Source: Ignavibacteria bacterium | GTDB lineage: Bacteria > Bacteroidota > Ignavibacteria > Kapaibacteriales > UBA2268 | Length of the DNA stretch: 64,000 bases | Assembly (NCBI GenBank): GCA_016844745.1 | Contig: JAERMQ010000009.1 | Span: forward strand, 7,184 to 71,183 | Reading direction: 5' to 3' | In this document: one piece after another, positions 3,901 to 60,790 of the stretch | How the letters are laid out: each line of letters starts with the position of its first letter | How positions within the stretch are numbered: the stretch's first letter is position 1 | Program-made: the position numbers and the translations under genes | Notes under the pieces: generated by a model | The model's input: only the letters and a program-made list of their open reading frames with translations | Told to the model about the DNA's origin: nothing | Database searches by the model: none

Positions 3901-4024
3901 GTTTTTTCCTTCTAAACTATTACAAATATAATAAAAATTTTAAATCCGACAAAACTAATCTTATTTAATATTAAAAATAATTTTTCTTGTTCAATTTCAC
4001 CTATAAAGCCTGATATAAAAGTCA

Positions 4025-4110
4025 GGAAGAATGTCATTCTGAACGCAGTGAAGAATCCAGTCCCAATGTGGCTTCTGGATTCTTCACTGCGTTCAGAATG
4101 ACATCCTTCT
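4025..4110. repeat. Long perfect inverted repeat (about 36-bp arms, atgtcattctgaacgcagtgaagaatccag, with an 11-bp loop); family A element
   Basis: Read directly. The same arms recur at 19681-19716/19851-19890 and as the outer arms of the composite elements at about 42299, 48018 and 60441. Confidence 0.85.
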
Positions 4111-14126: not shown

Positions 14127-14141
14127 ATGAATTAAAACGAA

Positions 14142-14224
14142 CCAAGAGAAACCCCCTAACCCCCTTTAAAAAAGGGGGAAATTCTATCCCCCTTTTTTAA
14201 AGGGGGTTAGGGGGTTTCTCTTGG
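14142..14224. repeat. GC-rich nested 'core' palindrome (ccaagagaaaccccctaaccccc ... gggggttagggggtttctcttgg)
   Basis: Perfect 23-bp outer arms enclosing two ccccc-ttt/aaa-ggggg sub-hairpins. It stands out against roughly 35% GC background. Sits between the POT stop and the next gene start. Confidence 0.85.
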
Positions 14225-14263
14225 TTAAAAGGATGTGAGTATATAACAATCAATAATTTAATA

Positions 14264-18878: not shown

Positions 18879-19016
18879 TTGAGTCCACTCTAAAAAGCAT
18901 TTTTAGTGATAATTACATTCCAAAATCGGAATTTTGGAATGAGAAATATCAAGAACTTGCTAATTCCAAAGTTGTACTTTGGAATTAAATTTTTGGTTTT
19001 TAGATAGGACTCAATG
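18879..19016. repeat. Family B ~135-bp element with terminal inverted repeats (gagtccactctaaaaag…) and two internal hairpins (attccaaaa-ccgg-aatttttggaat; attccaaagt-tgt-actttggaat), copy 1
   Basis: About 90% identical to 34035-34173. Both copies start about 15-30 bp after the stop codon of a plus-strand gene. Confidence 0.8.
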
Positions 19017-19064
19017 TTCGTAAAGGGGAAAAGGGAAGAGGAAAAGGGAAAAGTATGAAGAAGT

Positions 19065-19096
19065 ACTTTCCGAAAGTTTCCCTAATTTCGGAAAGT
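19065..19096. repeat. 13-6-13 palindrome copy 3 (inverted orientation, 1-nt deletion), followed by ttttt and so terminator-like on the + strand
   Basis: actttccgaaagt-ttccctaa-tttcggaaagt-ttttt, 30 bp upstream of the thioredoxin-like gene. Confidence 0.7.
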
Positions 19097-19126
19097 TTTT
19101 ACCATCATCAGAAAGTCTAGAGAAAA

Positions 19127-19680: not shown

Positions 19681-19890
19681 AAGAAGAATGTCATTCTGAA
19701 CGAAGTGAAGAATCTTCTACAACCTAAGATGGATGTCTTTGAGGTAAAGAATGAATCATGATTATTCAAGAAAAGCATCAATTCTAATTCTTATAGAAAG
19801 GATTAAATAATTTTGGAAAATCAAAAAAAACTTTTCAGATTTTGCAAGAAGATTCTTCACTGCGTTCAGAATGACATTCTTCTTTCTTTT
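19681..19890. repeat. Family A element with a 135-bp internal spacer (arms aagaagaatgtcattctgaacgaagtgaagaatcttc / agaagattcttcactgcgttcagaatgacattcttctt)
   Basis: Read directly. The arms are about 90% identical to the 4025-4110 palindrome. Confidence 0.8.
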
Positions 19891-19973
19891 AACACCAATT
19901 CGATTTCCTGAATGAATTAGAATATTAATATTTTTTTAAGACTAATTTTTTGAAATAAATACTTAGGAACAAT

Positions 19974-23671: not shown

Positions 23672-23741
23672 CTAAATTTTTAAAATGTTCCTCTTTGTAG
23701 TTTCTCAGATTTCTCTTGAATTCTTACTTCTTTGTGCCCTT

Positions 23742-23850
23742 TGTGATTTTCCTTTGTGTCCTCTGTGGTAAAATATTCTTCTAATTTGAACGAGGTAATT
23801 TTACCACAAAGGGCACAAAGTGGACGACACAAAGGGCACAAAGTTAGTTT
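23742..23850. repeat. Long imperfect palindrome built from cacaaagggcacaaag units (ctttgtgccctttgtg … cacaaagggcacaaag x2), probably a bidirectional terminator between convergent genes
   Basis: Read directly. Lies between the tRNA-His 3' end and the 3' end of the minus-strand 597-aa gene. Confidence 0.6.
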
Positions 23851-25676: not shown

Positions 25677-25917
25677 AAAATGATTCCTTGATATATTGAT
25701 TTAACCTGTTATTTATTCAATTTTACTTATCGTTCTTAATTCAACATTATTACTACGTTATAAGTAATGAATAACAAATTAGTCTGGTATTTGTTACAAT
25801 AGAATTTTTTTTTAAGTGAAGTTCTGAATAATGATGTGTTTCAAATAATATCCTTTCCTATTTGGGATAGAACAAACAAGGATGTTTATTCTACCCTTAA
25901 GTAGGTCAAACATCCCT

Positions 25918-26048
25918 GTTTGACTATATGTTGCATTTCATTTTTGATATGTTTGACTTTTGTTGCATTTCATTTAAGATATGTTTGACTATTTGTTGCA
26001 TTTCATTTTTGATATGTTTGACTATTTGTTGCATTTCAATTAAGATAT
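25918..26048. repeat. Tandem array of 4 x ~33 bp (gtttgactatttgttgcatttcatttttgatat)
   Basis: Four contiguous units, 85-100% identical, with no spacers, so not CRISPR. Preceded by a hairpin ggatgtttattctacccttaagtaggtcaaacatcc. Confidence 0.85.
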
Positions 26049-26186
26049 GATAAAGTTCATTTATAGGGTAGAATCTGACTGGCTAATTATTTTTGGATTT
26101 TGAATCAAGTTGCCAATGACAAAATTTTCTACCTTTTATTTTGAACAATTTATTGAAACAAAAATATATGCAACAATTAACACTTA

Positions 26187-26276
26187 GAGAAATCCCCCCT
26201 ACCCCTTTTTCAAAGGGGGATAAGAAAAATATTCTTCAATCCCCCTTTGAAAAAGGGGGGTAGGGGGGATTTCTCT
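26187..26276. repeat. GC-rich nested core palindrome (gagaaatcccccctacccc…ggggggtaggggggatttctc), 3' of nosY
   Basis: Near-identical to the cores inside the composite elements at 42395-42485 and 48078-48170. Confidence 0.85.
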
Positions 26277-26363
26277 TGAATTTGTCATTTTTTATTTTTA
26301 TTATGCCGAAATTTTGGAGTACAGAATAACAATTTCAAAATAAATGTGATTTATTAAGATAAT

Positions 26364-27146
26364 CTAAAAATCATTCTTGCGGAATAGCCAGCCGGCTAAT
26401 GTCAATGGCGCTAAAAGCCATACAAGAAGCATTGCAAACGACATTACCATACCCATTACATCGCCGAAAAAGCGCTCGAATACAGCACCCGTATAACCCA
26501 TTAAAGCTGCCGCATCCAATTTCAACATTACTAACAACCGTGCCAAATCGATTGGATTCAGGAAGCTAAGTATAATTAACGGCGCTTCCAATGGATAATC
26601 CTGAAATGCCGATATACCCAATAAGAGTAAACCATCAAATAGGAATGCAAAGAAAAACCATATTAAAAACGCAGCGCCTAATCCTTTTGCTTTATCCACT
26701 ATACTGGTAGATATGCAGAATGCAACCGCTGTGAACATGAAAATAAGGAGAATACCACTTGAAAGCATGATTAGGATTACCGGAATGCTTTCAGATACAT
26801 TGATTAATAAAGGCAAACCTGCGCCAACAAGGAATACCAATGATAACGGAACAGCCATACCGAAATATAATCCGAAGAATAGCTGGCTGCGTCTGATTGG
26901 CTGGGATAGTAATAGTTCGATAAATTCACGAGAATAATAGATATAAAGTGAACCGAAAACGAGGCTCAGCAATGGATTTATAAGAAGGATTATGCTTAGT
27001 ACGGAAATAATTACTTTGGAGCTGTCTCCGCTGAATTCATACAATGCTTCTACAGAAAACAGGAGGAATATTCCGTAAAGAATCACCCAGCGGCTGCGGA
27101 ATACGTCTTTAAATTCAAATTCTATTATTTTTAGTGTTGTGTTCAT
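26364..27146 (-). CDS. nosY: NosY, ABC-2 type permease of the nitrous-oxide reductase maturation system
   Basis: 260 aa, 6-TM ABC-2 permease, last gene of the nos cluster after nosD and nosF. Confidence 0.75.
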   Translation of the reverse strand: MNTTLKIIEFEFKDVFRSRWVILYGIFLLFSVEALYEFSGDSSKVIISVLSIILLINPLLSLVFGSLYIYYSREFIELLLSQPIRRSQLFFGLYFGMAVPLSLVFLVGAGLPLLINVSESIPVILIMLSSGILLIFMFTAVAFCISTSIVDKAKGLGAAFLIWFFFAFLFDGLLLLGISAFQDYPLEAPLIILSFLNPIDLARLLVMLKLDAAALMGYTGAVFERFFGDVMGMVMSFAMLLVWLLAPLTLAGWLFRKNDF

Positions 27147-27182
27147 ATATTATTATGTTCAAAAAGAGTAAATTTTTACATT

Positions 27183-27280
27183 GAGAAATCCCCCCTACCC
27201 CCCGGTTATAGAAGTAGAACATTGAAGTAGAAGTAGAAATAAATCCCCCTTTGAAAAAGGGGGGTAGGGGGGATTTCTTC
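27183..27280. repeat. Core palindrome arms with an inserted 'cggttatagaagtagaacattgaagtagaagtagaa' module, in the nosF-nosY intergenic spacer
   Basis: Read directly. Both the outer arms and the inner ccccctttgaaaaaggggg hairpin are retained. Confidence 0.85.
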
Positions 27281-27301
27281 TAAAATTATCATTTCCAATT
27301 T

Positions 27302-28027
27302 TCAATTATTCCCATTTCCATTTTTATTTGTCAGTAATTTTGAAATAAGCTGCTCTAAATTATCGTAATTCGAATTATCAATCAAGGCATCCAGCTTATC
27401 TTTTAAAATAATTTTCCCGTCGATAATATATGCAAAATTCTCGGCAAAACCTGAAATTTCACCTAATAAGTGGGTTATATAAATTATCGTTTTGCCGGAT
27501 TCTTTTTCGAGTGCCAACAGGTTCTTAAGTTTGCCGGATGAAACCGGGTCGAGTCCTGCCGTTGGTTCGTCTAAAATGTAAATTTCAGGTTGGTACATAA
27601 ATGCCATTACCAATCCTACCTTCTGGCGTGTACCGCCTGATAGATTCCTCATAAATTGTGATGTAAAAGGCTGCAAACCGAAGGTATCCAACAATTCCTC
27701 ATCATTTGCTTGGGTAGAGCTATTGCGGATTTTCTTCACCATTGAAATTACATCCGTTACCCTGAGATTTTCCGGGTACCGTGCAATTTGAGGCATGTAT
27801 CCGATTCTGCTTCGATATTCCGATTGCCGCAAAGCGCTTTTCCCTTCAATCTTAATATCACCGGAATCAATATTTACTAATCCGAGAATTGATTTAATTA
27901 ATGTAGTTTTTCCCGAACCGTTAGGACCTGCAATTGCTGTTACCGCGCCTTTCGGAAAGTAGAGATTTATATCATCCAAAGCTTTGGTTTTGCCGTAGCT
28001 TTTGGAAACCGATTCAAGTTCTATCAT
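27302..28027 (-). CDS. nosF: NosF, ABC transporter ATP-binding protein
   Basis: Walker A GPNGSGKTT, signature LSGGTRQK, Walker B IYILDEP. Overlaps nosD by 4 bp. Confidence 0.85.
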   Translation of the reverse strand: MIELESVSKSYGKTKALDDINLYFPKGAVTAIAGPNGSGKTTLIKSILGLVNIDSGDIKIEGKSALRQSEYRSRIGYMPQIARYPENLRVTDVISMVKKIRNSSTQANDEELLDTFGLQPFTSQFMRNLSGGTRQKVGLVMAFMYQPEIYILDEPTAGLDPVSSGKLKNLLALEKESGKTIIYITHLLGEISGFAENFAYIIDGKIILKDKLDALIDNSNYDNLEQLISKLLTNKNGNGNN

Positions 28028-29259
28028 TTGTTCATCCTCATTGATGGCGCTGTGTCGATGTAATATTTTGGCGTTACGGATGGAAATATTTGTTCCGCAA
28101 TATCGAGAGCCTCGACGAATAAGCTATGAAGCAGCAGCACCGAATATTGAAATTTCTCTGCTAAAAATGAAAACAGTGTTACCGGGCAATATGGAATATC
28201 ACCGGCTCCGTCCTTATTTATATCGTAACCCTTATAACGGCTCCAATAATTACCTAAGAATATATTTTTGCCGTAACCGCTCGTAGCTGCAGCATCAAAA
28301 GTATTACCGATAAAATTATTTTTTATAAAAGTATTATCAGTGCAATTAGCAAGGATTTTCAAAGCCCAGCCGTTTTTTTCAAAGGTATTATGTTCCAATT
28401 TAACTCTGTTGATTCCTTCGGAAAAAACAGCAATCGTATTTTTAGTAAAGGTATTCCTTTCAATTCTGCTATCCTTAATATCCTTCAGGAGAAGCCCAAA
28501 TGATGCGGTGCCCCAGTTGTGAACGAATTTATTCCCCGTCATATCTATATATCTCGTGTACATAACTGCAACCCCGGCTCCATTTTCTATAAATGAATTA
28601 TTAATATAATGGCAACTGTCCGAAAACATAAAATGCAATCCATACCTGATGTTATGCATACTTTCATTTCCTTCTATGCGGCTTCCACGAACGAATTCGA
28701 AATAGATGCCGTCCCTATGACCTTGTACTTTATTGTTGCGGATATGTATATTATTGCAATGCCAGAGATGAATACCATTCCCGTTTATGCTTTCGCGCTT
28801 ACCGGTGGAACTCAATTTATTTCCTGAAATGATGCAATTATTGGTATTGGCGAGGTAAATACCGAAAAAGCAATTATTTATCTTGTTGTTTTTAACAATG
28901 CAATCCGTTGACTTAATAAATTTTATCGCAGCGTTATCGGATGTATGATTATATGGGACATTCTTTAATAATAAACCATTAAATTCAACTCCGGATGCGG
29001 TAATCGAAAATAAATTACCCTTGCATGATGAAGCGTCAATCTCCGGATAATCAACACCAATTATTGATAATCTCTTATCGATTTTTATGCCGGAAGATGT
29101 ATAATTCCCTTTTGCAATAAGCAAGGTATCGCCTGCTTTAGCAAGAGCAACAGCCTTTGCAATGGAAGGAGAATCCTTGTCGATTTTTATTATTCCTGCA
29201 ATAGAGTTGCTGGAAAATAAAACCAAAAGCATTAGTGCAATAAATAGCTTTGAAAACAT
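28024..29259 (-). CDS. nosD: NosD, periplasmic right-handed beta-helix copper-binding protein
   Basis: 411 aa with a signal peptide and repeated NN.I..N..GI beta-helix (PbH1) repeats. Sits in the canonical position downstream of nosL. Confidence 0.8.
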   Translation of the reverse strand: MFSKLFIALMLLVLFSSNSIAGIIKIDKDSPSIAKAVALAKAGDTLLIAKGNYTSSGIKIDKRLSIIGVDYPEIDASSCKGNLFSITASGVEFNGLLLKNVPYNHTSDNAAIKFIKSTDCIVKNNKINNCFFGIYLANTNNCIISGNKLSSTGKRESINGNGIHLWHCNNIHIRNNKVQGHRDGIYFEFVRGSRIEGNESMHNIRYGLHFMFSDSCHYINNSFIENGAGVAVMYTRYIDMTGNKFVHNWGTASFGLLLKDIKDSRIERNTFTKNTIAVFSEGINRVKLEHNTFEKNGWALKILANCTDNTFIKNNFIGNTFDAAATSGYGKNIFLGNYWSRYKGYDINKDGAGDIPYCPVTLFSFLAEKFQYSVLLLHSLFVEALDIAEQIFPSVTPKYYIDTAPSMRMNK

Positions 29260-29308
29260 CTATATTAAGTTTTATAATCTTTAAAATTTTTGTAACTTCT
29301 ATTAAAAA

Positions 29309-29424
29309 GAGAAACCCTCTAACCCCCTTTGAAAAAGGGGGAACTCTTCTTCTTCTATTTCTACTTCTACTTCTATGTTCTACTTCTATGTTCTACTTCT
29401 ATAACCGGGGTTAGGGGGTTTCTC
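29309..29424. repeat. Core palindrome arms flanking a (tagaagtagaa)n tract, in the nosL-nosD intergenic spacer, with T-runs on both sides
   Basis: gagaaaccctctaaccccctttgaaaaaggggg…ctacttctacttctatgttctacttctat…ggggttagggggtttctc-tttttt. On the transcribed (minus) strand the hairpin is also followed by ttttt. Confidence 0.85.
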
Positions 29425-29431
29425 TTTTTTC

Positions 29432-30604
29432 TTACTCTTCCAACGCTAACTTTGAAAGTTCGCTCCAGTTCAACGTATCAAATTTCGATTCCAATTTTAA
29501 TTTGGGGATTTCTTCTTTTGATACTAACGATACGGCATTAAGTCCCATTGGGGAATGGAACTCGAGCGAACGGACGTAAGTCGCATGTTCAGCATTTATA
29601 AATACGCCGGGATTTAAGTAATTTATTGTCCACAGAGAATGAATCTTTTCATCTTTCAAATTTTTATCTTTATATGCAATCATACATTCGACAACATCAA
29701 ATTTATGAATTTTTCCTTTATCAGTAATTATTTCCGCACCCCATTTCGAATCAACAATCGTCATCTTGCAGTGAGCACAGGCATCCGAACCGAGTACTAT
29801 CGGCTGTGGCTCCTTTGCACAGCCTGTTACTCCCGATAAAATAACAATCGCTGAAATTACTAATGCTGCAGTGGTTCCGGGTTGTCCACTTTGGACTGAG
29901 GGTTTAGTATTCTTTTTTCTAAAAAGTGATATTATGAAAAGAATTAATGAGAATCCCGCACAATAGGCTCCGAGATAGGGCCACGATATAGCATTGAAAT
30001 TAAGAAGCTGTTTCGAACCAATCAGGGGTGGCTGATATGCCATTCCTGTAATTTTTATAGCTGCTTTCGGATTTAAATTATGCCCGTAATCGTATTCCCA
30101 TAAGTAGAAGTCATACAGTCCATAAATTAATCCTGCTAAAAAAATCACAATCCAAACCGTAGTGATAGCTTTTTTATCGAATATAAAAGCAATAAATCCT
30201 AAAAAGAGCATGAAGCCTATGAAATAAGGCATAATCTTGAGTTCCGGGATCGATTCAGGCTCTATACGCTTCATCCCAATATAATGATTAAGTCCGTTAA
30301 GGCTTTCCAGGTCATGCTCTTTATGACCGGTTATTTTATCTATATGAATATAGATACCCAAACCTTCGGGATACTGAGGAGCTTCCAAAGATATGCTCCA
30401 TATTGGGAGGAAATAAATCGGGATTAGTACTAATATTCCAATGAACATTAGTACTCTTGTTTTGGTTATCATGTGAGTATCAATAAAATTTATAATACTA
30501 AAAAAATAATCCTCTCCTGTCGTAAGCTTGCTTCGGACAAGAGAGGATAAGAAACTTATGACACATACCTGTATAAACCTGTTTTCATATAGGTTTATAC
30601 ACAA
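29432..30604 (-). CDS. nosL: Fused NosB-like polytopic membrane protein (N-terminal ~230 aa) plus NosL copper chaperone lipoprotein domain (C-terminal ~160 aa)
   Basis: The C-terminal part has a lipobox LSGVTGC followed by a NosL-like block (GSDACAHCKMTIVDSKWGAEIITDKGKIHKFDVVECMIAY). The N-terminal part is multi-TM and sits right after nosZ, as nosB does in clade II clusters. There is no internal Met between the two parts, so they are encoded as one ORF. Confidence 0.65.
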   Translation of the reverse strand: MCINLYENRFIQVCVISFLSSLVRSKLTTGEDYFFSIINFIDTHMITKTRVLMFIGILVLIPIYFLPIWSISLEAPQYPEGLGIYIHIDKITGHKEHDLESLNGLNHYIGMKRIEPESIPELKIMPYFIGFMLFLGFIAFIFDKKAITTVWIVIFLAGLIYGLYDFYLWEYDYGHNLNPKAAIKITGMAYQPPLIGSKQLLNFNAISWPYLGAYCAGFSLILFIISLFRKKNTKPSVQSGQPGTTAALVISAIVILSGVTGCAKEPQPIVLGSDACAHCKMTIVDSKWGAEIITDKGKIHKFDVVECMIAYKDKNLKDEKIHSLWTINYLNPGVFINAEHATYVRSLEFHSPMGLNAVSLVSKEEIPKLKLESKFDTLNWSELSKLALEE

Positions 30605-30610
30605 TAAAAT

Positions 30611-32566
30611 TTATTCTTGTTTACCCCAGGAAACTTCACCTTTTGACTTAGCAGGCGAAACACGCACATATCCTTGCATCTCCTGATGAAGCGCCGAACA
30701 GAAATCCGTACAATACATCGGAAACATACCTGCTGTCTTTGGTTCCCATTTAAGGGTTTGTGTTTCACCAGGCATGATAAGCAATTCGGCATTTTGGCAA
30801 CCTTTAATTGCAAAGCCATGGGGAATGTCCCAGTCTTGTTCCAGATTAGTAACGTGGAAATAAACTTCATCACCAACTTTAATGCCTTCAATATTATCAG
30901 GAGTAAAGTGCGAACGAATAGCAATCATATAAACATGAACAACATTTCCTTGCCTTACTACTTTAGCGTTATCAGGTGAAATGGTTTTGTACGCATGATT
31001 ATTTTCTTCCATCTTGAAGAATTTTACCTGTTTATCTTTGATTGTTGAAGCTAATATTGCCTGAGCATAATGCGGCTCGCCAATAGTCGGGAAGTCGGAG
31101 AGCAATTTCATTTTATCACCGGTAATATCAATCAACTGAGCTGATTGGCATAATTCGGGACCTGTCGGAAGATATCTGTCTTTTGTAATTTTATTCAAAG
31201 CAATAACATATTTGCCATAGGGCTTCTTTGTATCGCCGCCTGGTACCAATAAGTGACCAATTGAATAATAAGTCGGGATTCTGTCAACAACTTTGAAATC
31301 CTTTGTACTCCATTTGGTAATTTCCGATGATACGAACATTGAAGTATATCCGAATCCTTTTCCATCAAATTCGGAATGCAGCGGACCTAAACCGCAGTTC
31401 AGTACTTCACCGGCAAGAACGGATTCATAGTTTAAAACAGGAATGCCATTGACGGTTTTATCAATCTTCTTATCTTCAATTGCCTTCAACATTTTTGTAA
31501 ATGAAAAGCAGGTTATTTGTGCAGCCAGTTTACCTCCACCTACTATTAATTCACCTTCAGGGTCAACATCGCATCCGTGCGGAGATTTCGGTGTCGGCAT
31601 AAAATAAACCAAACCGGGACATTCTTCTGGAGTAAGAACCAATACTTTATCTTCAACCTTTGAGGTTGCCGTATGCGTTTTATCGTCATAAGTATTATGG
31701 TAATATGATGCAGAAACAAGCTTTCCTTTGTTTTGAGCAATGTACTCTTCAGCTTTTTTCCAGTTTACTGCTGCAATGTAATCTTTGTCGTTCTGGCTTG
31801 AATTAACTTCCTTTAATGTATTTGCTTCTTCGGAATTATAGGTTGAGAAGAACATCCAGCCGTGGGATTTCCCTTTTCCAGGGCGAGCTAAATCATAATC
31901 ATAACCCGGCATAAGTATCTGGAATGCTATACTCATTTTACCTTCTTTAGCCACTTTGATAAATGATAGTATGCCTTTGAAGTTTTGTTTGTAACTATCA
32001 ATCGGAACATCCCCATCGCCAAAGGGAATTGAAAATCTCGTACCCGCAACTACATATTCGGTATTTTCAGTTGTAAATGGAGATGAGTGGTTACCGGCGC
32101 TATTTGGGATTTCGATGATTTCCTGCGTTCTGAATGTAGTTAAATCAATTCTTGCTATTCTTGGAGTATTGTTACCGTTAATAAATATCCATCGTCCGTC
32201 GTGTTCTCCGTTAGTTTGAGATAATGTTGGGTGGTGTGCATCATCCCAGGGAATGAAACCATGAGAAGTCATAAGCATAGGCTTTGTTTCTTCGGTATAG
32301 CCCCAGCCTTTTTCGGGGTCTTGGGCGAAAACAGGAATAACGCGGAATAATCTACCGCTTGGAATACCATAAACACCTATTTGTCCACTGAAACCACCGG
32401 ACAGAAAGGCATAAAATTCGTCATACTGACCGGGTGCAACATAAACCCTGGAAGGCGCATCGCTCGATACTCTGCCGTTTTTCTTTGTGCCTGTACATCT
32501 GGACATTAAAAATATGCCTGCCACTAATATTACCGACAAAGCTGAATAAACAACATATTTTTTCAT
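30611..32566 (-). CDS. nosZ: Nitrous-oxide reductase NosZ, clade II (Sec-dependent)
   Basis: 651 aa. Sec/lipoprotein-type signal without a twin-arginine motif. Seven-bladed propeller body with His ligands. C-terminal cupredoxin CuA motif (MYCTDFCSALHQEMQGY). Confidence 0.92.
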   Translation of the reverse strand: MKKYVVYSALSVILVAGIFLMSRCTGTKKNGRVSSDAPSRVYVAPGQYDEFYAFLSGGFSGQIGVYGIPSGRLFRVIPVFAQDPEKGWGYTEETKPMLMTSHGFIPWDDAHHPTLSQTNGEHDGRWIFINGNNTPRIARIDLTTFRTQEIIEIPNSAGNHSSPFTTENTEYVVAGTRFSIPFGDGDVPIDSYKQNFKGILSFIKVAKEGKMSIAFQILMPGYDYDLARPGKGKSHGWMFFSTYNSEEANTLKEVNSSQNDKDYIAAVNWKKAEEYIAQNKGKLVSASYYHNTYDDKTHTATSKVEDKVLVLTPEECPGLVYFMPTPKSPHGCDVDPEGELIVGGGKLAAQITCFSFTKMLKAIEDKKIDKTVNGIPVLNYESVLAGEVLNCGLGPLHSEFDGKGFGYTSMFVSSEITKWSTKDFKVVDRIPTYYSIGHLLVPGGDTKKPYGKYVIALNKITKDRYLPTGPELCQSAQLIDITGDKMKLLSDFPTIGEPHYAQAILASTIKDKQVKFFKMEENNHAYKTISPDNAKVVRQGNVVHVYMIAIRSHFTPDNIEGIKVGDEVYFHVTNLEQDWDIPHGFAIKGCQNAELLIMPGETQTLKWEPKTAGMFPMYCTDFCSALHQEMQGYVRVSPAKSKGEVSWGKQE

Positions 32567-32587: not shown

Positions 32588-33043
32588 TTACTTGGAACCC
32601 GAAATATCCCGCAAATGTTCATATATTGCGAGCGCTTCGTTTTGATTAACATTTTGATTTGTCATTTTTGTAAGATAAGTTTTCACAAGAGCTATAATTG
32701 TATCGTTTTTCTCCTGCATTTGTTCCGGATACATAATCATGCTGACTATATATTCAGGGGTGCGTTTTTTTGTGATTCCGCGTAGTGGAGGACCAACCAA
32801 ACGGGTATCATATTTATGGCATGCAACACATTTTATAGAGAATGCAGATTTACCCTTATCAGCTAAGGCTTGATTGAAAGCCCCGATATTTAAATCTTTT
32901 ACAACAGTGAAATCAGGTGAAGTTTCTTCGCTACAACCTGGAAATATAGCTAAAATGAATGATATCATCATAAAGGTGAAGGTTGCTTTGAGAAAAGATT
33001 CACAGCCATTTCCCGGTGTATTGAATAGGTTTAATTTTTGCAT
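32588..33043 (-). CDS. Mono-haem c-type cytochrome (nos-associated electron donor)
   Basis: CVACH haem-binding motif with a signal peptide. Sits immediately upstream of nosZ, as in clade II clusters. Confidence 0.8.
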   Translation of the reverse strand: MQKLNLFNTPGNGCESFLKATFTFMMISFILAIFPGCSEETSPDFTVVKDLNIGAFNQALADKGKSAFSIKCVACHKYDTRLVGPPLRGITKKRTPEYIVSMIMYPEQMQEKNDTIIALVKTYLTKMTNQNVNQNEALAIYEHLRDISGSK

Positions 33044-33172: not shown

Positions 33173-33364
33173 TTAATTAATTAAGGCAATTGAAGTAACG
33201 ATATTACCGCGTCTCAAATCCTGGAGGATTTTTGTGAGATAATGAAACGGAATCCGGGTTGCTTCGGAAATACGTGAAATTGGTATAAGAGTTGCTTCCG
33301 GCTGGGAGGCAAGGTAAATTGTAGCTTTTATACCGTAAATTCCGGCTTTAGAAATAATGTTCAT
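33173..33364 (-). pseudogene. Truncated Rrf2-family (NsrR/IscR-like) regulator: only the N-terminal wHTH (63 aa) is present
   Basis: AGIYGIKATIYLASQ…PISRISEATRIPFHYLTKILQDLRRGNIV matches the Rrf2 N-terminal DNA-binding domain. A stop follows after 63 aa, whereas full-length proteins are about 140 aa with C-terminal Cys ligands. Confidence 0.5.
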
Positions 33365-34034: not shown

Positions 34035-34173
34035 TTGAGTCCACTCTAAAAAGCATTTTTTGTGAAAATTACATTCCAAAACCGGAATTTTTGGAATGAG
34101 AAATATCAAAGACTTACTAATTCCAAAGTTGTACTTTGGAATTTAATTTTTTACTTTTTAGAGTGAATTCAAT
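34035..34173. repeat. Family B ~135-bp element, copy 2
   Basis: About 90% identical to 18879-19016. Begins 13 bp after the response-regulator stop codon. Confidence 0.8.
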
Positions 34174-36700: not shown

Positions 36701-36730
36701 AATTATTTAAGTTCCTATCAAAAGAAGAAA

Positions 36731-36835
36731 AACCCCCTAACCCCCGGTTTTAGAAGTAGAACATGGAAGTTGAATATAGAAGTAGAAAAAATTCCCCCTT
36801 TTTCAAAGGGGGTTAGGGGGTTTTTCTTCTTTTGA
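36731..36835. repeat. Core palindrome arms plus a tagaagtagaa module (gaagaaaaaccccctaacccccggttttagaagtagaacatggaag…ccccctttttcaaagggggttagggggtttttcttc)
   Basis: Read directly. Same architecture as 27183-27280. Confidence 0.85.
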
Positions 36836-42275: not shown

Positions 42276-42298
42276 AGGGGTTCTAAAAATTACAAATT

Positions 42299-42598
42299 GT
42301 TCCTGCGGATGAGGCTACGTGAAAAGTCAATAAAATTGTCATCCTGAACTCCAAAATACTAAGAATAATAAAAATAAAAAATGACAAATTCAAGAGAAAT
42401 CCCCCCTACCCCCCTTTTTCAAAGGGGGATAAGAAAAATATTTATAAATCCCCCTTTGAAAAAGGGGGGTAGGGGGGATTTCTTAAACTTGAAATTATTG
42501 AACTTTTTTGAATTAAGAAAAATCTGTCATTGGTAACTTGATTCAGGATACATAAACCGCACTGGGAGGGGATTCCTGTATCCGCAGGAATGATATTC
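42299..42598. repeat. Composite ~300-bp element (outer arms, a 'gtcattctgaac'-type inner arm, GC-rich core palindrome, structured right half containing the conserved loop ccgcactgggag), copy 1
   Basis: Collinear with the elements at 48018-48290 and 60441-60736, all in the same orientation. Begins 24 bp after the stop of the upstream gene. Confidence 0.85.
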
Positions 42599-42606
42599 TT
42601 TAATTT

Positions 42607-43509
42607 TTAGAACCTCCCTTTATTGAATCCGTTCTTAATAAGAAATTGCTCCAATGTCATGCAGTTCAGGTATTTATCTTTGCAATTTTTTATGGCGGTT
42701 TCAATTTCCGGTGGATAGGGAGGACGTCCGTTTTTTTCAGATAATAGCCGCATCTTGTAGAATTCTTTTGCAAAAAGTTTCATTGCGAATGTAGGTTCTG
42801 CCTTATATTCAAAAGACTCGCCATCATTAATTTTACTCAAAAGCGCAGCTAACTCATTTCCCGAAACAAAATCTGTTATCAGGTTCATCTCAATATTATG
42901 ATAATACTTTTGGAACTGGAAGGCAATAGTTACAAACTCGCCAATATCCTTGCTTGAGATATATGGTATTTTTGCATCGCCATCGGTGGAGCCTTTGATA
43001 ATACCATCCTTGATAGGAAAGTAGGGGGCGCCTAAATTATCCATAAATGTAGCTAATTTGAAAATTGTAAAGGGTACAGTTCCTTCCCGAATATTATTTT
43101 CCAGCATTAATTTACTTTCTAAATGCGGTATTCCGGTTTCTTCCATTCCAATACTCAGGACGGAAGTAAATACAAGGTGCCTTATACCGGATTCACGGCA
43201 TGCTTCAATAATATTCCTGCCCTGTTTCATTTCTTCTTTAGTACTGACTTTTTTATAATCTTTCGACCATGGTTGAGTTAAACCGAACACACCATGTGCA
43301 TTTTTAAAAGCTGCTAATAATGAGGCTTTATCATTTAAGTCACCAAACATTACATCTGCTCCCTTTTCATATAAGGCATTAGCCGAAACATTATCCGGAT
43401 ACCGGGTTAAGGCAACAACATGAAAATCTCTTGAACGAAGCAATGCATCTACTACTGCACCACCCTGGTTTCCTGTTGCACCGCATACAACTATTGTATT
43501 TTTTGCCAT
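42607..43509 (-). CDS. NmrA-like NAD(P)-binding protein
   Basis: N-terminal Rossmann fold (IVVCGATGNQGGAVVDALL) and NmrA-like length of 300 aa. Confidence 0.75.
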   Translation of the reverse strand: MAKNTIVVCGATGNQGGAVVDALLRSRDFHVVALTRYPDNVSANALYEKGADVMFGDLNDKASLLAAFKNAHGVFGLTQPWSKDYKKVSTKEEMKQGRNIIEACRESGIRHLVFTSVLSIGMEETGIPHLESKLMLENNIREGTVPFTIFKLATFMDNLGAPYFPIKDGIIKGSTDGDAKIPYISSKDIGEFVTIAFQFQKYYHNIEMNLITDFVSGNELAALLSKINDGESFEYKAEPTFAMKLFAKEFYKMRLLSEKNGRPPYPPEIETAIKNCKDKYLNCMTLEQFLIKNGFNKGRF

Positions 43510-47943: not shown

Positions 47944-48017
47944 TCTTTATTGTTTTTCTCAAATCTTTCGAATTGTCATTCAAGCATTAGAGATTGTGTG
48001 AAAACTATCAATAATAG

Positions 48018-48290
48018 AAGAATGTCATTCTGAACTCCAAAATAATGGAATTAATAATAATATGCAATAACAAATTCAAGAGAAATCCCCCCTACCCTCC
48101 TTTTTCAAAGGGGGATAAGAAAAATATTCTTCAATCCCCCTTTGAAAAAGGGGGGTAGGGGGGATTTCTCTAAGTTGAAATTTTTGCTAATTTTTGAATC
48201 AAGAAAAATCTGTCATTGGTAACTTGTTTCAGAGTCCAGAAGCAGCATTGGGACTGGAATCTTCACTTCGATTACGAATGACATTCTTCT
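48018..48290. repeat. Composite ~275-bp element, copy 2 (family A arms gaagaatgtcattctgaac / gaatgacattcttc enclosing the GC core and structured right half)
   Basis: Collinear with copies 1 and 3. The core at 48078-48170 is about 98% identical to 26187-26276. Confidence 0.85.
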
Positions 48291-48480
48291 TGACTTTTTA
48301 CACAACCTCATTCACAGGAATGACTATTTATATAGTATTGCTCTTTTAAATCTGTTCAAATAACTACCGTTTCATTATTTTATTGAAACGGCAGTTTTTA
48401 TAATTTGGCATTATAAAATATTTTTTTTAATTTTGTAGTCTGTATAGTTTACAAAACTATTTGATATGAAATTATTTCAT

Positions 48481-48555
<75 letters not shown>

Positions 48556-48764
48556 CGGTTTTAGAAGATAGAACATAGAAATAGAAGTAGAAGTAGGGTA
48601 AGGTTAATTTTTATTAGTACATTTTGCAATGAATACCATCATTTCATTAAAATATAAAATGGTGGTTATATGAAGCTAATATATAACAATACCAAAATAA
48701 ATATAATAAAAATCGACCTTACTCTACTTCTATGTTTTACTTCTAAGTTCTATGTTCTAAAACC

Positions 48765-48837
48765 GGGCCTATAGCTCAATTGGGAGAGCGCCAGATTTGC
48801 ATTCTGGAGGTTAGGAGTTCGAGCCTCCTTAGGTCCA
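48765..48837 (+). tRNA. tRNA-Ala (anticodon TGC) with a G3:U70 identity pair
   Basis: Acceptor gggccta/taggtcc gives the G3·U70 wobble characteristic of tRNA-Ala. Anticodon loop ttTGCat. T arm aggagttcgagcctcct. Confidence 0.8.
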
Positions 48838-48944
48838 CGGGGTTATAGAAATAGAACATAGAAAAAGAAGTAGAAAAGGTTAATTTTTAATTAACCTTTT
48901 TTTATCATATACTTAAATTTTTGGTTGAGATACAAAAACTGAAT

Positions 48945-59916: not shown

Positions 59917-60411
59917 ATGATTTTACCTAAAGAGACAAAAAAGATTTTAAAAAAAATTGATTATACTTTAACCGGAAAGTGCTTTGAGCCTGATACTACA
60001 GGGAAAATAAATGAAAATATATTTTCCGGATTATCCGATAAAAATCTGGGGAAACTGGAATTTTTACTTCATAAAATTGCCCCCGAATGTACGATTCAGA
60101 AATTTGTTGCAATGCTTGCTACTGAAATTCAAATGCAAGCACAATGGGATATTCTAAATGCCGCTTCGGAAGACGATGACCTGGATAAAGAGGACGTTGA
60201 AACTGAAGAAGATGAGGATTGGGACGAAGAGGACGAAGATTGGGATGAAGACGACGAAGATTGGGATGAAGATGAAGACGAAGATTGGGATGAAGATGAA
60301 GACGAAGATTGGGAAGATGATGACGATGACGTTGATGATGACGATGACGATGACGTTGATGATGACGTTGATGAAGACGAAGATTGGGAAGATAATGAAG
60401 AAGTAGTTTAA
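59917..60411 (+). CDS. Small protein with an extremely acidic, Trp-punctuated repetitive C-terminus (EDEDWDE repeats, then D/V-rich)
   Basis: A 164-aa ORF. The last ~75 aa are at least 85% D/E, with W every 7-9 residues, encoded by 21-24-bp tandem DNA repeats. The N-terminal 90 aa are non-repetitive. Confidence 0.45.
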   Translation: MILPKETKKILKKIDYTLTGKCFEPDTTGKINENIFSGLSDKNLGKLEFLLHKIAPECTIQKFVAMLATEIQMQAQWDILNAASEDDDLDKEDVETEEDEDWDEEDEDWDEDDEDWDEDEDEDWDEDEDEDWEDDDDDVDDDDDDDVDDDVDEDEDWEDNEEVV

Positions 60412-60440
60412 ATATTTAGGTTGGTTCTTGAAACTCTTTA

Positions 60441-60736
60441 ATTGTCATTCCTGCGAATGAGCTGTGTGAAAAGTCAAAAAAATTGTCATTCTGAAATCCA
60501 AAATACGGAACTTAATAAAAATATGCAATGACAAATTCAAGAGAAACCCCCTAACCCCCTTTGAAAAAGGGGGAATTTTTTGTCCCCCCTTTTTCAAAGG
60601 GGGTTAGGGGGTTTCTCTCTGTTGAAATTGTTGCCATTATTTTAAATCAAGAAAAATCTGTCATTGGTAACTTGATTCAGAATCCATAATCCGCACTGGG
60701 AGTGGGTTCTGAATCAGTTCAGAATGACAATCTTCC
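60441..60736. repeat. Composite ~300-bp element, copy 3
   Basis: Collinear with copies 1 and 2. The core variant is gagaaaccccctaaccccctttgaaaaaggggg…ccccccctttttcaaagggggttagggggtttctc. The right-half hairpin is tgattcagaa-N25-ttctgaatca. Confidence 0.85.
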
Positions 60737-60750
60737 TTTTTTGATACGAA

Positions 60751-60790
60751 AAAAAAACACCGGATTAACTCCGGTGTTTTTTGCAAGTAG
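60751..60790. terminator. Bidirectional intrinsic terminator (aaaaaaaaacaccggattaactccggtgtttttt)
   Basis: A perfect caccgga/tccggtg hairpin flanked by an A9 run and a T6 run, directly 3' of rpmA. Confidence 0.8.

Follow-up and report, generated by a model that had tools for sequence, protein, structure and literature searches.

Short, GC-rich, imperfectly palindromic sequences that lie outside genes in many copies are best known from the repetitive extragenic palindromic (REP) sequences and bacterial interspersed mosaic elements (BIMEs) of Enterobacteria and from the REP doublets forming hairpins (REPINs) of Pseudomonas. Inverted repeats of the Correia/NEMIS (Neisseria), ERIC, RUP and BOX families likewise occupy operon junctions, and their transcribed hairpins are RNase III substrates that change the stability of the flanking mRNA. 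REPs within operons can act as partial terminators and as stabilizers of the upstream mRNA, and the REP-associated tyrosine transposase (RAYT)/REP systems are defined by a nuclease gene that is present once, passed on vertically and flanked by the repeat (PMC3116915, PMC3733652). In E. coli, REP325 has been described as both a partial terminator and a stabilizer of the upstream mRNA within its operon (bioRxiv 10.64898/2026.03.23.713779). Here, we analyzed three large hairpins (copies A, B and C) in the nitrous oxide reductase (nos) gene cluster of an Ignavibacteria bacterium, contained in a window of 64,000 nt (contig JAERMQ010000009.1), by which we mean the whole stretch of DNA under study. 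As in the REP/BIME and REPIN families, the elements of the window are short, GC-rich, imperfect palindromes, extragenic and present in many copies; like REPs they occur within operons, between neighboring genes, and like REPINs all eight window copies are inverted doublets folding to long hairpins. We consider it probable that a dispersed REP/REPIN-like repeat is the source of the three nos hairpins and that these copies represent lineage-specific insertions with no conserved role in nos control. The author of the first-pass annotation of this DNA had not seen attenuation described in such a form; intra-operon repeat hairpins tuning expression ratios are, however, already known for REPs.

The genes of the cluster and the three hairpins, assigned to subtypes T1 and T2 of the repeat as described below, are as follows:

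32588-33043, minus strand: cytochrome c gene (Pfam)
30611-32566, minus strand: nosZ of the clade II type, with a nos_propeller domain (Pfam)
29432-30604, minus strand: NosL-containing open reading frame (ORF) as listed, 390 aa (Pfam)
29432-30472, minus strand: nosB-nosL fusion (nosBL) with the start corrected (Pfam and alignment to relatives)
28024-29259, minus strand: nosD (Pfam)
27302-28027, minus strand: nosF, ATP-binding cassette (ABC) ATPase (Pfam)
26364-27146, minus strand: nosY, ABC-2 permease (Pfam)
29304-29429, both strands: copy C, T2 palindromic doublet with satellite in the nosBL/nosD spacer, 22-bp outer stem (1 mismatch) around ~80 nt
27184-27278, both strands: copy B, T1 doublet with satellite in the nosF/nosY spacer, perfect 20-bp outer stem
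26186-26276, both strands: copy A, plain T1 doublet 85 nt 3' of nosY, within a ~330-nt composite repeat (26040-26370)

As the first-pass annotation had stated, nosD and nosF overlap by 4 bp, and the spacers between nosBL and nosD (29260-29431, 172 nt) and between nosF and nosY (27147-27301, 155 nt) are each mostly occupied by a GC-rich palindrome with a TAGAAG/TAGAAGTAGAACA satellite, the insert claimed for the palindromes being present in copies B and C. The predicted folding of minus-strand RNA bears out large hairpins in both spacers (copy C, -39.9 kcal/mol, z = -5.2, with 0 of 200 shuffles equally stable; copy B, -47.3 kcal/mol, z = -3.8), and the third copy reported after nosY is indeed there at 26186-26276, in the plain form (-71.8 kcal/mol, z = -10.8). 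The hairpins are located 3 to 21 nt past the upstream stop codons and 36 to 44 nt ahead of the downstream start codons, the base of copy C beginning 3 nt past the nosBL stop codon.

The same element recurs outside the nos cluster. The arm motif matched 8 times in the window and the inner hairpin 24 times, against 0.02 matches expected in either case, and a degenerate arm pattern recovered 16 arms. These make up exactly 8 inverted doublets, 4 of subtype T1 and 4 of subtype T2, the chance expectation over the searches being 0.02-0.23 matches. These lie at about 14.2, 26.2, 27.2, 29.4, 36.8, 42.4, 48.1 and 60.6 kb, and every one of them is intergenic. The five copies away from nos are the following:

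14140-14226, both strands: T2 copy with 40-nt arms, 100% complementary, between a major facilitator superfamily (MFS) transporter gene and a DUF748-like gene in tandem on the plus strand
36717-36835, both strands: T2 copy with satellite, between divergent genes for a HAD hydrolase (minus) and an unknown protein (plus)
42389-42493, both strands: T1 copy in composite repeat, between a convergent unknown gene and NmrA-like gene
48079-48171, both strands: T1 copy in composite repeat, 3' of the GAPDH gene and 5' of tRNA-Ile
60536-60626, both strands: T2 copy in composite repeat, between a convergent acidic-repeat ORF and the ribosomal protein L21 gene

If tRNA-Ile is counted as the 3' neighbor of the copy at 48 kb, five doublets have a tandem context, two a convergent one and one a divergent one. 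The presence of three copies within 3.1 kb at nos is not a significant clustering (P about 0.2-0.27, scan statistic). The five non-nos copies fold at -55 to -81 kcal/mol, more strongly than the nos copies, and copy A shares 73 nt at 100% identity with the copy at 48079-48171.

Each doublet is an inverted pair of ~34-nt units, a unit being composed of a small hairpin, CCCCCTTT-nnn-AAAGGGGG, and, 3' of it, (G/T)TAGGGGG(G)ATTT. Since the AAATCCCCC ends point outward, either strand can fold to a GC-rich stem of 20-40 bp that stands between AGAGAAA and TTTCTCT; in plain copies, the arms measure 36-40 nt and are 97-100% complementary. Alignment separates subtype T1 (AGAGAAATCCCCCCTACCCCCC-TTTTTCAAA-GGGGGAT...) from subtype T2 (AGAGAAACCCCCTAACCCCC-TTTGAAAAA-GGGGGAA...), and the tetranucleotide 3' of the unit hairpin is GTAG in T1 and TTAG in T2, unlike in REPs, which are unrelated in sequence and carry GTAG at the 5' head. 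Membership in the GTAG-tagged REPs, with GTAG or CGTC at the unit head, was rejected on account of this wrong tag position and of the TTAG variant. At Rfam gathering thresholds, only four tRNAs were identified in the window and the palindromes matched no family; the matches at E <= 1 were sub-threshold look-alikes of miRNA precursors, i.e., generic hairpins.

Both subtypes occur in a plain form and in a satellite form, the latter having a GGTTWTAGAAGTAGAACAT... module in place of one inner hairpin and the spacer. The modules within palindromes are located as follows:

29345-29405, minus strand: module of copy C (GGTTATAGAAGTAGAACAT..., periods 6 and 13), replacing one inner hairpin
27203-27241, plus strand: module of copy B, in the orientation opposite to that of copy C with respect to nos transcription
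36745-36790: module of the copy at 36717-36835

In the transcript, the satellite is purine-rich at copy C and pyrimidine-rich at copy B, and this opposite base composition argues against a consistent role at the RNA level. A larger composite repeat of ~330 nt, which contains several GTCATT/AATGAC boxes, encloses four of the palindrome copies; its mean column identity over the four is 74%, and it is a mosaic in the manner of BIMEs:

26040-26370 (reverse complement): composite repeat
42290-42620: composite repeat
47960-48310: composite repeat
60420-60760: composite repeat

Related nos clusters were found by protein search and contig look-ups, a metagenome scan with NosD having given two distant loci only. 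The best other NosD match is 56% identical, and the five relatives compared share 50-52% NosD identity with the window:

L119, ENA assembly: nosL/nosD overlap; nosD/nosF and nosF/nosY overlap
L120/L121, Ignavibacteria RIFOXYB2_FULL_35_12 type: nosL-nosD 34 nt; nosD/nosF and nosF/nosY overlap
L126, JGI metagenome: nosL-nosD 46 nt; nosD/nosF and nosF/nosY overlap
L117, Kapabacteria: nosL-nosD 230-nt AT-rich spacer with no GC palindrome; nosD-nosF 40 nt; nosF/nosY overlap
L125, ENA assembly: nosL-nosD 266-nt spacer with a different inverted-repeat element; nosD/nosF and nosF/nosY overlap

The window hairpins are found at the nos junctions of none of these five relatives, nosF and nosY overlap in all five, and the unit motif was not found in L117, L119 and L120, the three loci searched with two mismatches allowed. 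Without the palindromes, the two spacers of the window come to about 46 and 53 nt, close to the junctions of the relatives, and this residual length, together with the absence of hairpins from the relatives, identifies the palindromes as lineage-specific insertions. As copy C is of subtype T2 and copies A and B are of subtype T1, at least two independent insertion events are required. The nosL/nosD junction appears to be generally tolerant of insertion and a recurrent insertion site, the element at the nosBL/nosD junction of L125 (4733-4950, ~215 nt) having inverted repeats AGGCCGTGTTGAC...GTCAACACGGCCT. NosB and NosL are encoded by a single fused gene in the window and in L125 (3697-4734) and by separate genes in L117, L120 and L126. 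This NosD is present in one other assembly only, on a 2,139-bp contig that ends inside copies B and C, as assemblers break at repeats.

The unit is distributed far beyond Ignavibacteria. A scan of one genome per species with the pattern CCCCCTTTNNNAAAGGGGGKTAGGGGG gave at least 113 loci, with 122 unit copies among the matches listed, in Omnitrophota, Patescibacteria, Poribacteria, Nitrospirota, Nitrospinota, Planctomycetota (Brocadiia, Jettenia), Chloroflexota, Myxococcota, Desulfobacterota, Alpha-, Beta- and Gammaproteobacteria (including Acinetobacter and Lysobacter isolates), Melainabacteria, Clostridia, Spirochaetia, Bacteroidota (Roseivirga, Bacteroidales), Ignavibacteria and Kapaibacteria. 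The GC content of the loci ranges from 30% to 68%, whereas the ~34-nt unit is almost unchanged across phyla, unlike the lineage-specific REPs, and the window arms fit its consensus, CCCCCTTT-nnn-AAAGGGGG-KTAGGGGG-ATTT. In about 115 of the 122 listed copies, ATTT follows the unit although it was outside the search pattern; TC precedes it, the 3-nt loop is variable, and 38 of the 122 have the TTAG variant. Among the matches listed, most unit copies lie between genes, and their counts in tandem, convergent and divergent regions (55/15/7) match the background (316/88/58); there is no orientation bias in tandem regions (26 sense versus 23 antisense) and no gene-end bias, the distances to upstream and downstream genes being equal. 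A terminator-like positional bias across phyla was thus not found, and in its placement the unit behaves as a repeat at the DNA level and not as an RNA signal or terminator. Two further proposals were rejected: (i) carriage by phage, since the unit is rare in viruses (12 matches in 2.9 million viral contigs), and (ii) a satellite beside the unit as the general architecture, since a short tandem repeat lies within 60 nt in 11 of the 113 listed loci against a background of 6%, which is not significant.

The resemblance of the nos hairpins to intrinsic terminators, pointed out in the first-pass annotation, is borne out in outline but not in dimensions. As in bidirectional rho-independent terminators and attenuators, a GC-rich stem stands between an A-rich and a U-rich run, but the stems of 36-40 bp, or of 20-22 bp closing ~55-80 nt, are far longer or have far larger interiors than a stem of about 5-14 bp with a loop of 3-8 nt, and a scan with the rho-independent terminator consensus detected only the small inner hairpins of the palindromes. 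The TTTTT run said to follow copy C is present on the transcribed strand (minus-strand terminus, ...GGGUUUCUCUUUUUAAU / ...GGGUUUCUCUUUUU) but base-pairs with an AAAAA run in the 5' side of the stem. The U tract 3' of the stem is good in copy C (UUUCUCUUUUU), weak in copies B (AUUUCUCAAUGU) and A (AUUUCUCUAAGU) and broken in most copies of the family (AUUUCUCA..., AUUUCUCUAAG...). It therefore seems unlikely that the family consists of bidirectional intrinsic terminators copied around the genome, with the nos copies as true transcript ends and nosDF and nosY under promoters of their own. The arrangement AGAGAAA - GC-rich stem - TTTCTCT, symmetric on both strands, would suit such a function, as would the position of two of the eight copies between convergent genes and of one after the last nos gene; these features have to be set against the uncompact stems, the interrupted U tracts, the copy between divergent genes, a placement that ignores the direction of transcription, and region types that match background across phyla. 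Moreover, the hairpins leave just 36-44 nt ahead of nosD and nosY, and no promoter-like motif, including the Bacteroidota-type TTG...TAnnTTTG, was seen there by eye, which is weak evidence that read-through is probably needed and that the hairpins would be co-transcribed.

The claim that the two palindrome-bearing junctions are the only loose ones in the cluster does not hold, as the spacer between nosZ and nosBL is 138 nt (30473-30610) and not 6 nt. In the listed 390-aa ORF, residues 45-234 are 56% identical to the product of a 191-aa gene that stands by itself in L120, and the NosL of L120 aligns with residues 261-369; judged by this alignment, the real start of nosBL is the ATG at 30472 (Met45 of the listed ORF), the listed start being an upstream TTG. 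The corrected spacer accommodates two hairpins, of which the terminator-like one had stayed hidden because of the TTG-extended ORF call:

30500-30548, minus strand: terminator-like hairpin (30509-30548; ATCCTCTCTTGTC-(13 nt)-GACAGGAGAGGAT), then UAUUUUUUU, with a U7 T tract at 30500-30508
30570-30601, minus strand: other hairpin in the nosZ/nosBL spacer

A hairpin occupies the matching position after nosZ in four relatives, followed by a T tract in L117, L120 (GGGGAAC-GAAA-GTTCCCC, then CUUUUUAUU) and L126 and without one in L125. As read from the sequence, the element at 30500-30548 has the textbook shape of an intrinsic terminator at a position conserved among relatives. The need for NosZ in excess, which had been offered as the rationale for attenuation at the palindromes, is thus already served by a conventional element, and it is more likely that the step-down from NosZ to the accessory proteins would be set mainly by this post-nosZ hairpin.

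On the reading that we favor, a selfish or neutral repeat would have inserted into the nosBL/nosD, nosF/nosY and post-nosY sites in this Ignavibacteria lineage. Partial termination, processing or stabilization at the nos hairpins is a reasonable expectation by analogy with the REPs of E. coli, and several consequences can be envisaged once they are co-transcribed: (i) the 20-40 bp GC stems would hinder 3'-to-5' exonucleases; (ii) being double-stranded over 20-40 bp, the same stems would be long enough for cutting by RNase III; (iii) the U-rich 3' flank would terminate some of the transcripts, copy C with UUUCUCUUUUU being the best candidate; and (iv) translation of the upstream gene could be affected. 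A REP hairpin no more than ~15 nt from a stop codon can reduce the expression of the upstream gene via ribosome stalling, an effect that could apply to nosBL at copy C. By analogy with REP325, the likely net outcome would be that nosDFY expression falls somewhat behind that of nosZ-nosBL, and nosY expression behind that of nosDF, as a by-product of insertion.

That the hairpins are instead selected intra-operon attenuators or processing sites, splitting the transcript into cytc-nosZ-nosBL, nosDF and nosY for the sake of stoichiometry, we regard as quite improbable, and the first-pass proposal of an attenuation built into the nos operon is supported in part, attenuation or processing being plausible but a nos-specific or conserved design not being supported: the same palindrome occurs eight times in 64 kb beside unrelated genes, five unrelated window loci carrying the element and one of these lying between divergent genes, and the hairpins are found in none of the five related clusters. 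This proposal can appeal to the location of the hairpins at otherwise tight junctions, to the GC stem of copy C followed by UUUCUCUUUUU 3 nt past the nosBL stop, to the read-through that the lack of a promoter-like motif by eye makes probable, to the gathering of three copies of two subtypes in one cluster and to the ability of E. coli REPs to act in this way. However, that gathering is not significant, the satellites of copies B and C are oppositely oriented, the unit shows no orientation or gene-end bias across phyla, and a step-down is already offered by the position-conserved hairpin after nosZ.

In other phyla, the unit is linked to a protein family. Clustering of the nearby ORFs singled out one family, a small DUF559 gene (PF04480, E = 1e-27 to 1e-34) being located directly between units in 6 of the 113 listed loci, the window itself having no DUF559 gene, and the flanking unit, found in Desulfobacterota, Bacteroidota, Omnitrophota, Betaproteobacteria, Luteimonas (Gammaproteobacteria) and Dehalococcoidia, is the same sequence as the window unit. 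The DUF559 genes with their bracketing units are located at:

L082, 4691-5140
L004, 778-1200
L053, 3950-4400
L057, 400-840
L104, 3750-4400
L109, 1543-2330
L122-L124, 3950-4400

Three Desulfobaccales-like genomes have the gene in synteny (AhpC - AAA ATPase - DUF559 - 237-269-aa protein - response regulators). All three have a unit directly upstream of it, which differs by one base in L124, and two have another directly downstream, which L122 has lost. The Desulfobacterota-type 121-aa subfamily gave 1,315 matches, mostly on 0.5-2 kb contigs, and all 14 of the N- or C-terminally extended ORFs fetched contain unit-encoded peptides, e.g., PPLKKGGRGDLK N-terminal to the start and NPPKSPFSKGGL C-terminal to the end of the protein. 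Like unit-encoded tails (e.g., ...SIPPTPFTKGE) are found in the Bacteroidota subfamily. In the latter (P0243-P0247), some proteins have a 7-aa unit-encoded insert (PPLQRGLGG) within the domain, which suggests that the unit can land in frame inside the DUF559 gene itself. The orientation differs between the two settings, the window doublets being head-to-head (AAATCCCCC outside) and the gene-bearing form tail-to-tail (GGGGGATTT adjoining the gene).

With the RAYT/REP systems this arrangement has in common a nuclease gene that is syntenic, present once and enclosed by units, except that the gene is DUF559, a Vsr-like nuclease of the PD-(D/E)xK type, and not a RAYT of the HUH Y1 type. We put forward, as a tentative possibility that is less probable than not, that the window palindromes are part of a cross-phylum repeat system in which the DUF559 nuclease has the role of RAYT. 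In such a system, a single-copy, vertically inherited nuclease gene would reside between inverted ~34-nt units, gene-less singlets and doublets would be dispersed intergenically, including at nos, and the invariant KTAGG core, which resembles the CTWGG nicked by Vsr, may be the cleavage site. Searches of Rfam and of the literature yielded no description of the unit or of its link to DUF559.

It is very unlikely that the elements are ordinary miniature inverted-repeat transposable elements (MITEs), i.e., deleted derivatives of a DDE-type insertion sequence (IS) moved by a transposase in trans. They do resemble MITEs in that they are small and intergenic, end in inverted repeats and exist as several near-identical copies; as with Correia/NEMIS elements, some are inserted in operon junctions, and four copies lie inside a ~330-nt composite with GTCATT boxes. 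Unlike Correia/NEMIS, they have no identified TA target duplication, integration host factor (IHF) site, outward promoter or link to a transposase; no target-site duplication is recognizable, the window contains neither a transposase gene nor an autonomous transposon with the same ends, the only gene repeatedly bracketed by units in other phyla is the DUF559 nuclease and not a transposase, and conservation of the unit across phyla is unlike that of IS-specific inverted repeats.

Several points weigh against regarding the nos hairpins as insertions of a REP/REPIN-like repeat without conserved function: (i) the repeat census covers 64 kb of the genome; (ii) a search of the window, by hidden Markov model in the case of DUF559, revealed no transposase, IS200/IS605-type Y1 RAYT or DUF559 gene that could move the repeat; (iii) at the four minimal copies, a target-site duplication was not recognizable, the boundaries being blurred by extension of the palindrome; (iv) at 50-52% NosD identity, the relatives are too distant for the comparison to date the insertions or to establish conservation in close relatives; (v) termination, cleavage and stabilization at the nos hairpins are all effects that we infer; and (vi) three independent insertions in a 3-kb cluster, together with the U tract of copy C, would also fit a selected attenuator.

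Further observations concern the surroundings of the cluster and other repeats. Upstream of nos, an Rrf2-family ORF (33173-33364, minus strand) of 63 aa comprises the winged-helix part only, against 151-179 aa in L125 and L126, and no continuation was found in its other frames; it is probably a truncated regulator gene. A 33-nt tandem repeat is present in four copies at 25917-26049, two of which contain, on the plus strand, a promoter-like TTGACT-N16/17-TAAGAT directed toward hairpin A and antisense to nosY. A module of ~45 nt (GGTTWTAGAAGTAGAACATAGAAGTAGAA...) occurs in three palindrome copies and again by tRNA genes at 48557-48600, 48716-48764 and 48839-48880, where inverted copies border tRNA-Ala on either side and tRNA-Ile on its 3' side, making a long stem around or between the tRNAs; it was not found at tRNA-Lys or tRNA-His. 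The usual site of a tRNA-Ile(GAT)/tRNA-Ala(TGC) pair is the 16S-23S spacer; the pair at 48481-48838 is isolated, with no rRNA gene in the window. The source genome is unusually repeat-rich, and further short dispersed repeat or hairpin families were noted:

4011-4103, 19681-19718, 19847-19897: GAATGTCATTCTGAACGCAGTGAAGAATC
16-52, 1010-1057, 19050-19099: AACTTTCCGAAAGT...
23730-23850: CACAAAGGGCACAAAG hairpin 3' of tRNA-His
18932-19001, 34089-34158: TTGGAAT hairpin with T tract

Acidic repeats that are rich in D/E and have a periodic W make up most of the ORF at 59917-60411 (GAAGATTGGGATGAAGAC... array, 60202-60414), which has no Pfam match.

To conclude, what these clade II clusters conserve in cis is the terminator-like hairpin after nosZ and not the GC palindromes, and the lineage-specific palindromes may shift the expression of nosDFY and of nosY, which would result in strain-level variation in the capacity for N2O reductase maturation. 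For annotation, a TTG-extended ORF can conceal a terminator, and repeats account for the assembly breaks around nosD and nosF. If the proposed role of the nuclease is correct, DUF559 would gain a function, and a second, nuclease-based class of REPIN-like elements would be recognized, whose sequence is conserved across phyla. The association of the unit with DUF559 provides a lead, open to testing, toward the function of a large uncharacterized protein family and toward the origin of REP-like repeats.

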